This document shows positions 7,455 to 9,313 of a stretch of 16,347 nucleotides of DNA, one piece after another (position 1 is the stretch's first letter; each line of letters opens with the position of its first letter). A program made the translations under genes and the position numbers. The DNA is from a virus (Duplodnaviria; Heunggongvirae; Uroviricota; Caudoviricetes), in the IMG/VR virus record IMGVR_UViG_2529292905_000024, one strand, 5' to 3'. The notes below the pieces were generated by a model, which did no database searches, was not told the DNA's origin, and worked only from the letters and a program-made list of their open reading frames with translations.

Positions 7455-7478
7455 CAAAAAACCCGCCGAAGCGGGTAT
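7455..7478 (-). terminator. Intrinsic terminator ending the two-gene moron
   Basis: Minus-strand hairpin acccgc-uucg-gcgggu followed by U6, starting 3 nt after the stop of the 7481-8584 gene; core is a 20-nt exact copy of the 9293-9313 terminator. Confidence 0.65.
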
Positions 7479-7480
7479 AC

Positions 7481-8584
7481 TCAAACAATCTGGAAAATAT
7501 TTCTTGGATTTGTAATAGGTCTGTTGATGGAGAACAACTCACGAATTAAATCTTGGCTCAAGCCAGTTTTCATAAGAATTCTTAGCCAGGTTGCATCATC
7601 CAGCATTTCAATCGCCTCGGCCAGCATGCCGGGTTCTTCAGGGCGCAAAAGTTCATCACCAGGTTCAACTCTCGTATACCCTCTGGAATTAAGATGCATA
7701 TAGCCAGTTCTTGCCTGTTCCTGGGTCAATAAGCCTAATGCGCTGGCTCGATAAATACACATTTTAAGGCTGATTTTCCATCTAAGTTTAAATTCAACCA
7801 GAGCATTCCAGTCGAATTGCTTACCTCGTATTCGTGGAAATTCTTTAATGAAAGATAACCTGGGAACTAATAAGGCGCTCGAAAAGTGATCGGCTTGTGA
7901 TTCCGTAAGTTTATCACCTGTCGTTATGCCCTCATGCATTACTAAATGCCCTAATTCATGACCTAAATCAGAGCGAAATCTACATATGCTTTTTTTAACA
8001 TTGTTCCTGATGATAACAGGCCTGTTATTGTGAACAGTAAAAGCATCAACACGATCATCGACTCCCGTAACATGCGCAACGATTACCCCTAAACTCTCCG
8101 CCAATTTAACCATTGATGATATAGGGCCAAGACCTAAATTCCAGGCACGGCGACAATCTTCTGCCACTCGCTCAATATCATTCGGAGTAAGTAATTCAGC
8201 CCCTGGGTGCTCCGGTATGTTAACGTCAGGAAATTCGATTTCACCTTCAACAGCAGAAATTATAATATTAAGAATCTCAGCCCTGGCCAATACACTATTA
8301 GTCAGCGTTTGAGTCCTGGACTTCTTACTCCGAAAATGGCAGACATCACTTTCCAGAGCGTATTTTCGTTCAGTAAAAAGAAAACTGGACTTAATCATAA
8401 GCGCTGAAGATATTAACTCAAGACATTGCTCCGATGGCCTGCACCCCTTCTCCAGTTTGCTAACAAATTGCTTTGTCTTGCCAATTTTTTCGGCTAACTC
8501 TTCACAAGAAAGCCCAACAGCCATTCTCGCTAGTTTGAGCTTATCACCCCGATACTCAGTGAAGTTATTCACCTGATGTTCCAT
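7481..8584 (-). CDS. Fused XRE-family HTH / ImmA-IrrE-family (Peptidase_M78, COG2856) zinc metallopeptidase
   Basis: 367 aa from the ATG at 8584; N-terminal HTH (LKLARMAVGLSCEELAEKIGKTKQFVSKLEKG) and a central HEXXH zinc motif (SDLGHELGHLVMHEG). Overlaps the upstream gene by 20 nt. Confidence 0.8.
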   Translation of the reverse strand: MEHQVNNFTEYRGDKLKLARMAVGLSCEELAEKIGKTKQFVSKLEKGCRPSEQCLELISSALMIKSSFLFTERKYALESDVCHFRSKKSRTQTLTNSVLARAEILNIIISAVEGEIEFPDVNIPEHPGAELLTPNDIERVAEDCRRAWNLGLGPISSMVKLAESLGVIVAHVTGVDDRVDAFTVHNNRPVIIRNNVKKSICRFRSDLGHELGHLVMHEGITTGDKLTESQADHFSSALLVPRLSFIKEFPRIRGKQFDWNALVEFKLRWKISLKMCIYRASALGLLTQEQARTGYMHLNSRGYTRVEPGDELLRPEEPGMLAEAIEMLDDATWLRILMKTGLSQDLIRELFSINRPITNPRNIFQIV

Positions 8585-9215
8585 CACTGCTCACATCCAA
8601 ATCTTTATCCTTCGTACGCCGACGAAGAGGCACCTTATTAATCTCCGCTTCGTCAGGGAGTGTGTTATAATCAAGAGGCATAAGCGGCATCGATGCTGTA
8701 GATTGATGAGAAACTATACTAATCTGAGCACCATAAGTATTAAATCCAACAAGAGCTACCTCCCAACGAGGCAGTGTGGACTCTAATTCACCATCGCCCT
8801 CTTCGGATAAAAAAGGCTCAGCTATGACTCGCCATGTAATATCTTGCTCAGCCTCAACATCACCAAACAATGAGAGCTGCTCATACTCTACTTTATTTCG
8901 ACGCAGACGATGTTTCTTTTTGGGGTTATTAATGCAATCTTTGGTAAATTGTAGCGGAACTTTATTTAAAGCAACTACATAGTCCAACCCCTTGGAAATC
9001 ATCTCAAGGCCAGGAATTGCATCTTCATTTTGAATAAGATGATTTCTGACCCAATCATAAGCCCTTACACCTTCAGACCAGTTGCTGTCTAATGCGTGCT
9101 TATGATAGTACAGCTGCTCAAGTACGTTAGCGATCTCCGCCAACAAGTGGCGAACATAGTTTTCAGCAAGATAAGGTTGAAATTCCCAACAAGGAGCTAA
9201 CTGATTTTCATTCAT
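8565..9215 (-). CDS. Hypothetical protein (216 aa), first gene of the moron operon; candidate effector/toxin partner of the XRE-M78 protein
   Basis: ORF with ATG at 9215, acidic C-terminus, no motif I recognise; co-oriented and overlapping with the XRE-M78 gene, between a promoter-like element and a terminator. Confidence 0.55.
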   Translation of the reverse strand: MNENQLAPCWEFQPYLAENYVRHLLAEIANVLEQLYYHKHALDSNWSEGVRAYDWVRNHLIQNEDAIPGLEMISKGLDYVVALNKVPLQFTKDCINNPKKKHRLRRNKVEYEQLSLFGDVEAEQDITWRVIAEPFLSEEGDGELESTLPRWEVALVGFNTYGAQISIVSHQSTASMPLMPLDYNTLPDEAEINKVPLRRRTKDKDLDVSSDGTSGE

Positions 9216-9250
9216 TTCAAGTTTCGCTTTTTTTAGAATTCGTAAACCAC

Positions 9251-9279
9251 ATATTTTCGCATTTTTCTATTTTTGTCAA
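9251..9279 (-). promoter_or_regulatory. Candidate sigma70 promoter of the moron operon
   Basis: Minus-strand perfect -35 TTGACA (plus 9274-9279) and a weak -10 (GAAAAT/AAATAT at 16-17 bp), between the upstream terminator and the ATG at 9215. Confidence 0.3.
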
Positions 9280-9292
9280 CCAGACTAATGCA

Positions 9293-9313
9293 AAAACCCG
9301 CCGAAGCGGGTTA
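9293..9313 (-). terminator. Intrinsic terminator of the hok transcript, immediately upstream of the moron
   Basis: Minus-strand hairpin acccgc-uucg-gcgggu plus U5; 20-nt core identical to 7459-7478. Confidence 0.65.

Follow-up and report, generated by a model that had tools for sequence, protein, structure and literature searches.

A duplicated terminator hairpin as a possible recombination joint for toxin-antitoxin and defence cassettes downstream of hokD in Qin/PPompW-like prophages

The window (the whole stretch of 16,347 nucleotides that was analysed, IMG/VR virus record IMGVR_UViG_2529292905_000024) belongs to a lambdoid E. coli prophage that resembles Qin and PPompW. In its P-to-Q (nin-type) region hokD and rem are separated by a two-gene cassette, and the same 20-nt sequence lies at both borders of the cassette. 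The question that this locus raises is how a cassette comes to be enclosed by two copies of one terminator. The best explanation, to which a probability of roughly 0.6 is assigned, is that both repeats are functional copies of a single generic Rho-independent terminator and that the cassette entered by short-homology recombination at this terminator "linker", with the hairpin as the recombination joint.

The window contains exactly two copies of the sequence AAAAACCCGCCGAAGCGGGT, at 7457-7476 and 9292-9311, both on the + strand and with 1835 nt between the repeat starts; there is no third copy in the window even at three or fewer mismatches, and none of 200 dinucleotide-preserving shuffles of the window contained even one match. 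The identity ends at the edges of the repeat, where the left copy has C and six A residues and the right copy C and five, and where GGGT is followed by A on the left and by T on the right. RNA transcribed from the minus strand reads ACCCGC-UUCG-GCGGGU at both copies, followed by U6 (left) or U5 (right). The left copy (7455-7476, minus strand) consists of this hairpin at 7461-7476 and its U6 tract at 7456-7461 in + strand coordinates; it begins 4 nt past the rmrA stop codon and is the predicted terminator of the rmrTA operon. The right, hok-proximal copy (9292-9312, minus strand, AACCCGC-UUCG-GCGGGUU and U5) lies about 70 nt past the hokD stop codon, at the predicted 3′ end of the hokD mRNA. 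Directly 5′ of it is an fbi-like segment whose pairing with the 5′ end of the hok mRNA (about -38 kcal/mol) agrees with the fbi/tac scheme.

Both copies are detected by a terminator scan, which places the right-copy stem at 9312-9295, and in folding each forms the hairpin that dominates its surroundings (for the left copy in a 56-nt context, the centroid is at -10.9 kcal/mol). Each combines a GC-rich hairpin with an immediate U-tract and closely follows the end of a gene or transcript of the same orientation, as intrinsic terminators do. A T-run is absent on the + strand at both copies, and therefore they are predicted to terminate minus-strand transcription only. The earlier note had described an identical 20-nt repeat in one orientation that forms a minus-strand intrinsic terminator at each border, and exact matching, the terminator scan and folding all bear this out; the coordinates that it gave, 7459-7478 and 9294-9313, are both 2 nt too high.

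The cassette between the copies is a candidate RosmerTA anti-phage operon, as judged by its sequence. The antitoxin gene rmrA (7481-8587, minus strand, 368 aa) encodes an N-terminal HTH domain and an ImmA/IrrE (M78) metallopeptidase domain (Pfam HTH_3 and Peptidase_M78; PADLOC RmrA, 6e-105). The adjacent toxin candidate rmrT (8565-9215, minus strand, 216 aa) has no Pfam match and is recognised by PADLOC as RmrT (4.6e-25) and as PHROG 5786 (8e-85). The two genes overlap by 23 nt, forming one operon with the gene content of RosmerTA, namely an RmrA with HTH and ImmA/IrrE domains and an adjacent RmrT. The 5′ region of the cassette (9216-9291, minus strand) is a putative rmrTA promoter/operator with a perfect -35 TTGACA at 9279-9274 and repeated TGGTT(G/T)AC motifs. 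The region with its TTGACA is kept in the 94% (L010) and 80% (L011) identical copies of the cassette; a consensus promoter scan made no call in 9216-9291 and found no acceptable -10 there.

The cassette has a GC content of 41-43%, compared with 52-59% for hokD, ydfU and a 92-aa gene of the backbone. With this deviant composition, its own predicted terminator in the left copy and its absence from relatives in which the flanking genes adjoin, it shares these features with morons. A DNA search of the phage collection with the cassette gave no match, even in distant mode, and the plasmid collection contained two near-identical copies and one weak match. Toxicity, neutralisation and anti-phage activity were shown for other RosmerTA members (PMC10440598). 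The proteins of the present cassette resemble the known family (Millman et al. 2022; Ernits et al. 2023, PMC10440598) in having an RmrA with HTH and ImmA-protease domains, a variable upstream RmrT and a prophage location. Nothing unusual was detected in them, and only the genomic embedding of this RosmerTA is of interest.

On the hok side, hokD (9381-9536, minus strand) encodes a type I toxin (Pfam HOK_GEF, 1.2e-23; annotated hokD in RefSeq) and is preceded by a sok/hok regulatory region that matches Rfam sok RF01794 at 9534-9705 with 100.6 bits; sok was the sole family found by an Rfam scan of 6900-10100, and no RNA family covers the terminator. On the other side, rem (7066-7371, minus strand, PHROG 340) is a backbone gene, so annotated in K-12-type Qin and in phages, and the conserved 92-aa gene (6718-6996, minus strand) is located upstream of ydfU (DUF968).

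If the cassette was inserted at a terminator, relatives without it should show just one copy at the 3′ end of hok, with the gene at 7066-7371 immediately next, a test proposed in the earlier note. The result was positive: the order hokD, single terminator, rem is found in O157:H7 PPompW (L001), in K-12 Qin (L003) and at a third cassette-free locus (L133), and the same pattern holds on two other backbones, so that matching empty sites exist for three different backbones (L227 being the empty site of a DUF1367 backbone). Single-copy empty sites are present in thousands of genomes, and all of them keep the right, hok-proximal terminator as the sole copy. L133 has no mismatches to the window from -190 to +26 around the junction, U6 tract included; the U6 tract of the window's left copy and everything to the left of it are identical to this empty-site allele. 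L133 differs from the window at five positions in the hok 3′ UTR, and therefore it is not a direct deletion derivative.

The earlier note added that such direct repeats can permit precise loss of the cassette, which the genomes do not support. A 2-kb synthetic empty site made from the window flanks was compared with 5,426 complete E. coli genomes, and no precise-excision derivative was found among them (no one-piece match at 99% identity or above; the best one-piece matches were 90-93%). The same 5,426-genome search yielded no circular cassette form or excision product.

The window's cassette is one of at least four unrelated, co-directional cassettes in this slot, which among them involve at least three backbones; every one of the four lies between copies of the hairpin. 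The four bracketed types are two RosmerTA operons, an HTH/ImmA module and a Phd/Doc toxin-antitoxin. The second RosmerTA, of Tritos/LF82, is present in 41 genomes; its RmrA is 32% identical to that of the window and its RmrT is unrelated, and the operon came to light only from annotation and from comparing proteins. The HTH/ImmA module (L135) consists of an HTH gene, an ImmA/IrrE gene and a small Cys-rich orf, and its repeat is 23 nt long. The Phd-like/Fic-Doc toxin-antitoxin is present in the slot in 125 genomes, and at least four different sequences follow it downstream. The window-type Rosmer cassette is found on the rem-containing backbone in 222 genomes and on a rem-less backbone in nine, joined exactly at the second hairpin; O55:H7 USDA5905 and ABU 83972 are examples of strains with the window-type prophage. 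The slot was also surveyed at 80 loci anchored on the 92-aa gene (6718-6996). In the sampled loci, which are a non-random and partly redundant set, about 16 sequence classes begin right after the hok terminator, and a second terminator copy follows within 3.5 kb in 39 of 101 hok loci. The single-copy empty sites and the like bracketing of at least four cassettes support the earlier proposal that the cassette was inserted by recombination within or next to a pre-existing terminator, and they suggest that the hairpin is a joint reused for swapping different cassettes.

The U-tracts permit the joints to be located. The length of the downstream copy's U-tract is that of the empty site of the same backbone, and the one at the hok-proximal copy stays with the cassette. 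Because the U-tracts co-segregate with the flanks in this way, the joints map inside the 16-nt hairpin. In two cargo types the junction falls inside the descending stem, after CCCGCTTCGGC and before TGT at L005, and after CCCGCTTCGGCG and before TT at L136. The length of the repeat varies by cassette (20 nt, about 21-23 nt, or up to about 45 nt), and it always corresponds to the functional hairpin and its U-tract.

The earlier note had considered that its reading would fail if the repeat proved to be a common REP-like element scattered through the genome. The 20-mer is present in 5425 of 5426 E. coli genomes, in 3-13 places each (median six). More than 120 viral contigs that are unrelated also contain it, and UNCG loops are found in nearly all of these. 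One of its places is the terminator of rnpB (RNase P RNA), 14 nt downstream of that gene, which matches the right copy in context over 22 of 22 nt (GCAAAAACCCGCCGAAGCGGGT); rnpB is an unrelated core chromosomal locus, and therefore the match marks the sequence as a general-purpose terminator; it is also indirect support for a predicted stop of RNA polymerase at the copies in the window. A REP/BIME-like element was rejected, since such elements occur in hundreds of places per genome as clustered imperfect palindromes of about 35-40 nt, in contrast to a 16-nt palindrome with a U-tract in 3-13 places. The concern was thus right as to a widespread sequence and wrong as to its kind: as a terminator the 20-mer is generic and close to the thermodynamic optimum. 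The identity of the two repeats is by itself weaker evidence of duplication than was assumed, and insertion at the terminator is upheld because at least four unrelated cassettes are bracketed alike at the site.

A terminator so common could come to border a cassette twice by convergence. Each cassette might have arrived by illegitimate recombination with its own terminator, one of the commonest class in enterobacteria, perhaps homogenised later by gene conversion, and selection alone could place the viable junctions right after terminators, as in the Hendrix model of moron accretion. Independent cassettes could end in the generic 20-mer in this manner, and the loops of the second copies on rem-less backbones (UACG, CUCG), which are unlike that of the hok copy, agree with it. 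The cassette family may even carry the terminator type natively, given that the 80%-identical cassette in a non-hok context (L011) ends in ACCCGC-UAUAU-GCGGGU-U6, which has the stem of the window with another loop and offset. That cassette, however, is flanked by two different terminators, and its homology to the window cassette ends at the rmrA stop codon, indicating that the terminators were not co-inherited. Convergence would also have to explain why four unrelated cassettes end in the same hairpin at one site, why, on at least three backbones for which matching empty sites exist, the joints fall at the hairpin to the nucleotide, and why only two of the 31 terminator-like sites in the window belong to this hairpin type; it is judged unlikely. 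If the terminator had instead been duplicated once in the distant past, the bracket would have a single origin and its contents would have turned over in place by illegitimate or flank-mediated events. Such turnover is seen in L136-type lipoprotein cargo, which retains an rmrA 3′-end remnant of about 45 nt beside the left hairpin and is clearly, by its sequence, a replacement inside a former Rosmer bracket. The repeat on rem-less backbones also fits a single duplication in that it reaches a second common block, TCTGGTT(T/G)ACAA, about 10-20 nt past the U-tract. The Doc and HTH/ImmA cassettes, however, have no Rosmer remnants at either end, and empty sites are known for three backbones. Replacement within the bracket would in any case require crossovers at or in the hairpins, so that this quite improbable alternative partly collapses into recombination at the hairpin. 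The -35-like block TCTGGTTKACAA was considered as a general part of the duplicated unit and rejected, being restricted to Rosmer cassettes on rem-less backbones and absent from the Doc and HTH/ImmA cassettes.

Direct repeats that flank inserted DNA are also what a transposase or integrase leaves as a target-site duplication, or what might result from a mobile hairpin element of REP/MITE type. The cassette encodes no transposase or integrase detectable by Pfam or PADLOC, terminal inverted repeats are absent and the repeats are not of one fixed length, and by these observations a transposon target-site duplication is effectively refuted; an integron attC site was rejected on the same grounds. 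A mobile hairpin should be present in hundreds of copies, not in 3-13 of which one is the rnpB terminator. An origin of either sort is very improbable.

Under recombination at the hairpin, the hokD (hok/sok) transcript would natively end at the right copy, and the left copy would terminate a self-contained RosmerTA operon of promoter, rmrT and rmrA. Cassettes ending in the same hairpin would join the resident hok terminator by a crossover inside the hairpin of about 16-20 nt. This could come about through recombinases of phage or host that act on short homology, via a circular intermediate, by unequal exchange or by copy-choice at the hairpin, and each route would necessarily leave one hairpin copy per side. 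The pair of copies would then insulate the cassette: the 3′ end of the hok mRNA would stay exact, and constitutive rmrTA transcription in the lysogen would not run on into rem, ydfU, rusA and the Q antiterminator. It counts against this reading that RecA or Red would have very little homology to work with in 16-20 nt.

The nearest precedent is the shuffling of PeSL cassettes in the T4-type phages RB49 and phi1 (Arbiol et al. 2010, PMC2839356), in which stem-loop/promoter units mediate insertion and deletion via mini-circles. In both systems the non-essential cassettes of a hyperplastic region lie between repeats of a terminator stem-loop (in part next to a -35 block in the present case), empty sites have a single stem-loop copy, one slot receives different cassettes (here four types on three backbones) and transcriptional insulation, which in the present case is predicted, either comes with the cassette or is retained by it. 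In contrast to the PeSL, a phage-specific motif with about 100 conserved nt of promoter and stem-loop in a T4-type phage, the unit common to the present cassettes is a hairpin and U-tract of 19-23 nt, a generic host-type terminator in a lambdoid prophage. Mini-circles are known for the PeSL, and none were observed for the present cassettes.

Like morons (Juhala/Hendrix; Cumby et al. 2012, PMC3594210), the cassette is an atypical-GC, putatively independently transcribed unit between genes that are adjacent in relatives, predicted to end in a factor-independent terminator and to be expressed from the prophage. Unlike classical moron accretion, which presupposes illegitimate recombination with no conserved sequence at the flanks, it has identical flanks and a joint that recurs at one hairpin. 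The exchange of lambdoid and defective-prophage modules (Qin, Rac) at short conserved sequences is the subject of the Botstein/Susskind "linker" model and of Rad52-like relaxed recombination, where short or diverged homology suffices for Red-beta-type recombinases to drive exchanges of lambdoid phages with defective prophages (De Paepe et al. 2014, PMC3945230). The homologies tried experimentally in that work are hundreds of bp with perfect stretches of 49-298 bp, in contrast to the 16-20 nt proposed here. A search of the available literature found no specific description of a hokD-terminator hotspot or of terminator-bracketed lambdoid morons, which is not proof of novelty.

A bolder reading, put forward tentatively and more doubtful than not, is that the hok terminator hairpin acts as a recombinase-independent "attachment site". 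It would serve a pool of toxin-antitoxin and defence cassettes with terminators at their borders that circulate among lambdoid prophages, possibly as mini-circles, in an integron-like or PeSL-like manner. If so, a generic host-type terminator would itself be the vehicle of moron mobility in temperate phages. If the matching ends are only convergent, both the moron and the terminator at this locus are ordinary.

The entry of morons and defence cassettes into temperate phage genomes is a long-standing question, the choice being between random illegitimate joining followed by selection and targeted exchange at short "linkers". The locus offers a compact natural series with one hairpin, at least four cassettes, at least three backbones, an empty site for each backbone and a joint of about 16 nt, so that the question becomes directly testable by simple genetics. 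The terminator pair would account for constitutive expression of the cargo without read-through into the Q antiterminator. The slot downstream of hokD in Qin/PPompW-like prophages, which is present in most E. coli genomes, is a predictable place where toxin-antitoxin and defence systems accumulate, and it is useful for mining new systems.

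The window is a Qin/PPompW-like lambdoid prophage whose 6700-9900 segment matches E. coli O55:H7 USDA5905 at 100% identity. All relevant genes of the locus lie on the minus strand, arranged in the direction of transcription as a SIR2-domain gene (9908-10939), hokD (9381-9536; Pfam HOK_GEF 1.2e-23, with its sok region matching Rfam RF01794 at 100.6 bits), the right terminator copy (9292-9311), a 216-aa gene (8565-9215; PADLOC RmrT 4.6e-25), a 368-aa gene with HTH_3 and Peptidase_M78/ImmA-IrrE domains (7481-8587; PADLOC RmrA 6e-105), the left terminator copy (7457-7476), rem (7066-7371), a conserved 92-aa gene (6718-6996), ydfU (DUF968), rusA and the Q antiterminator. 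Judged from its sequence, this inserted gene pair encodes a RosmerTA defence system, a type in which varied toxins are paired with an ImmA-protease antitoxin for phage protection (PMC10440598). The GC content of the cassette is 41-43%, versus 52-59% in hokD, ydfU and the 92-aa gene. Diverged cassette copies keep a perfect TTGACA that lies at 9279-9274, and the promoter scan called no convincing -10 element, so the cassette promoter is only putative.

The SIR2_2-domain gene (36-38% GC, immediately upstream of hok/sok) has weak PADLOC matches to Aga_SIR2 and PDC-S21; its position is occupied in other prophages by paa, a SEC-C protein, AbiH or QueH, so that a second slot for variable cargo lies upstream of hok. 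An IS481-family transposase between hokD and the SIR2 gene (UMNF18, L134 1824-2897; porcine ETEC clade, H164-H181) also points to an insertion-prone neighbourhood around hok. Elsewhere in the window, an IS3-family (IS629-like) insertion sequence with 25-nt terminal inverted repeats (TGAACCGCCCCGG...) occupies 14301-15610, with orfA (15230-15556, minus strand, HTH_Tnp_1) and orfB (14343-15230, minus strand, rve); the USDA5905 annotation has no transposase at the corresponding region, and therefore the strain of the window differs from USDA5905 there. Four to five tandem repeats of ~23 nt (CATTTTGACC..ATGGAGCG-like) at 12262-12392, inside a 339-aa orf (11756-12775, minus strand) that has no Pfam match, are probably origin iterons in an O-like replication gene. 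Downstream of Q are three minus-strand tRNA genes (2341-2590), called by ARAGORN as Arg-tct, Arg-tcg and a CAT-anticodon tRNA labelled Met, the last of which is annotated as Ile in the RefSeq record of USDA5905.

Across its 16,347 nt, the window has exactly two copies of the 20-mer AAAAACCCGCCGAAGCGGGT, each on the plus strand (7457-7476 and 9292-9311, 1835 nt apart), with no third copy in the window at up to 3 mismatches and no match in 200 dinucleotide-preserving shuffles. The earlier note had rightly described two identical copies in the same orientation, but placed them 2 nt too high (7459-7478 and 9294-9313). Identity stops at both edges, where C-A6 and GGGT-A of the left copy face C-A5 and GGGT-T of the right copy. 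On the minus strand both copies read ACCCGC-UUCG-GCGGGU, followed by U6 (left) or U5 (right); as the note had proposed, they are intrinsic terminators on this strand, picked up by a terminator scan and forming the dominant local hairpin in the fold. Neither hairpin is followed by a T-run on the plus strand, so the predicted terminators work on minus-strand transcription only. The 34 nt immediately 5′ of the right hairpin pair at about -38 kcal/mol with the beginning of the hok transcript (~9680-9720). The mRNAs of the hok family have a fold-back (tac/fbi) architecture, which predicts such strong 5′-3′ pairing, and this places the native 3′ terminus of hok mRNA at the right copy.

Identity of the copies has to be read against how common the terminator is. 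A scan of IMG/VR with AAACCCGCCGNNGCGGGT matched at least 120 contigs, and among the 126 matches listed only about 14 adjoin hok, with loops that are almost all UNCG. Most of the 20-mer is matched in 5425 of 5426 E. coli genomes at 3-13 places each (median 6), and the rnpB (RNase P RNA) terminator of K-12 (L132 1501-1522) is identical to the right-copy context at 22/22 nt (GCAAAAACCCGCCGAAGCGGGT). The repeat is therefore a generic terminator and not the scattered REP-like element that the note had raised as an alternative, and its identity is much weaker evidence of duplication than 4^-20 would imply. Many unrelated phage contigs (L012-L131) share the context ACCCGC-YNCG-GCGGGT-T7-AT(T)GCCYGGAG-N6-ATG, in which the terminator runs straight into the ribosome-binding site and start codon of the following gene, and several (L069, L076, L089, L121, L123) have two copies of the family a few kb apart; in other phage groups, too, it may recur as an intergenic repeat.

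Cassette-free related prophages have a single terminator followed directly by rem, as an insertion at the terminator had been expected to leave. The empty sites of O157:H7 PPompW (L001) and K-12-type Qin (L003) read ...GAAAATAAAAACAAAAACCCGCCGAAGCGGGTTAAGTGCGGG..., and that of a third prophage (L133, one genome) has 0 mismatches to the window over the 190 nt to the left and the 26 nt to the right of the junction, a stretch that takes in the unusual A6 run of the left copy. A synthetic 2-kb empty site made by joining the window flanks had no one-piece match of at least 99% in 5,426 complete genomes, leaving the suggestion that the repeats mediate precise loss of the cassette unsupported.

The cassette was found in 236 of 5,426 complete E. 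coli genomes, with at least 99% identity in 223 records, and the left junction (rem flank, terminator and rmrA end) is 100% identical in 222 genomes of very different lineages. Two large, non-mobilizable E. coli plasmids (CP088590.1 and NZ_AP026904.1; H121 and H122) carry the window-type cassette at 99.9% identity and may be phage-plasmids or contain integrated prophage segments. In a 553-nt contig of E. albertii (L226), the Rosmer 5′ junction continues for only its first 12 nt (GCATTAGTCTGG) after the hok terminator before the sequence becomes unrelated; an IS has probably inserted into the cassette promoter there.

The same slot holds different cargo in other prophages, and cargo co-directional with hokD is repeatedly bracketed by the same hairpin. 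In the Tritos/LF82 type (41 genomes), a RosmerTA of another subfamily (RmrA 32% identical, RmrT unrelated) lies between the hokD terminator and a second copy with loop CUCG, directly followed by the 92-aa gene without rem. The STEC346 type (9 genomes) has the window-type cassette at 94% identity on a rem-less backbone, its terminator copies differing at 2 positions. In SCPM-O-B-12142 (L135), separate HTH and ImmA/IrrE genes with a small Cys-rich orf are bracketed by a 23-nt repeat, AACCCGCTTCGGCGGGTTTTGTT. A Phd-like/Fic-Doc toxin-antitoxin pair (125 genomes; Pfam Fic 1.2e-11) has two bracketing copies on at least four different downstream backbones. Lipoprotein cargo (L136 type) has a remnant of an rmrA 3′ end beside the left copy and a right copy truncated within the descending stem. 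A second copy is absent with rem itself, a 370-nt AT-rich insert and an oppositely oriented ParDE module, the last with its junction within the hairpin stem. In a non-random and partly redundant sample of 101 hok loci, ~16 sequence classes start right after the hok terminator, and 39 loci have a second copy within 3.5 kb downstream.

In every case compared, the U-tract of the downstream copy is the empty-site allele of the same backbone: U4 plus GUUUUUUCC on rem-less backbones, U5/U6 plus GUUUUUAUUUUC on rem+ backbones, and U6 plus GUUGCGUGC on the DUF1367 backbone, for which L227 is a matching empty site. At the hok-proximal copy, the U-tract and next bases travel with the cassette: they are U5-GCAUUAG where the cassette is window-type Rosmer, whichever of the two backbones carries it, and U6-CACGUAC where it is Doc. 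Sequence 5′ of the hairpin belongs to hok at the first copy and to the last cassette gene at the second. Since U-tracts and 5′ bases segregate with their flanks, the exchange points fall inside the ~16-nt hairpin or, at the widest, inside the shared unit of 19-20 nt.

The terminator-linked origin suggested earlier is thus supported, with the caveats of a generic sequence and of precise loss being without support, and we assign a probability of roughly 0.6 to the terminator hairpin having served as a recombination linker. A cassette that ends in this generic hairpin would join the resident hok terminator by crossover within the hairpin, leaving one copy on each side. Most simply, the arrangement in the window would result from a crossover within the left hairpin that joined a prophage carrying Rosmer to an L133-type rem+ prophage, which would also explain its perfectly identical copies versus the diverged loops on rem-less backbones. 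Among described mechanisms, PeSL-mediated modular shuffling of T4-type phages comes closest: ORFans there are flanked by stem-loop/promoter repeats, one chimeric copy is left at empty sites, and mini-circles have been detected; the same paper notes that lambdoid moron regulatory sequences are not regarded as mobility vehicles (PMC2839356). Recombinases of the Red-beta type drive exchange of lambda with Qin/Rac on short or diverged homology, although the tracts tested were much longer than 20 nt (PMC3945230).

Illegitimate insertion of a cassette that independently carried a convergent terminator would suit the generic sequence, and also a window-type cassette outside the hok context (KL53, L011; 80% identity, with homology confined to the stretch between the -35 box and the rmrA stop codon), whose own terminator has the ACCCGC/GCGGGU stem in common; this is unlikely, because bracketing recurs, the joints are precise to the nucleotide and the two terminators flanking the L011 cassette differ from one another. 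Less probable still is a single ancient duplication followed by turnover of cargo in place, to which the rmrA remnant in L136 points, but which would still require crossovers at the hairpins. Target-site duplication by a transposase or integrase, or a REP-like element, is very improbable given the lack of a recombinase and of terminal inverted repeats, the variable repeat length and the low copy number.

Taken by itself, a RosmerTA moron flanked by an intrinsic terminator is nothing unusual; the recurrent bracketing of unrelated cassettes by hairpins at the hok terminator, of which no description was found in the literature searched, is probably a lambdoid variant of linker/PeSL-type modular exchange. 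By position and structure it is nearly certain that the right copy is placed to end the hok mRNA and the left copy the rmrTA transcript, their activity being predicted. The left copy is accordingly positioned where it may insulate rem, ydfU, rusA and Q from constitutive transcription of the cassette in the lysogen.
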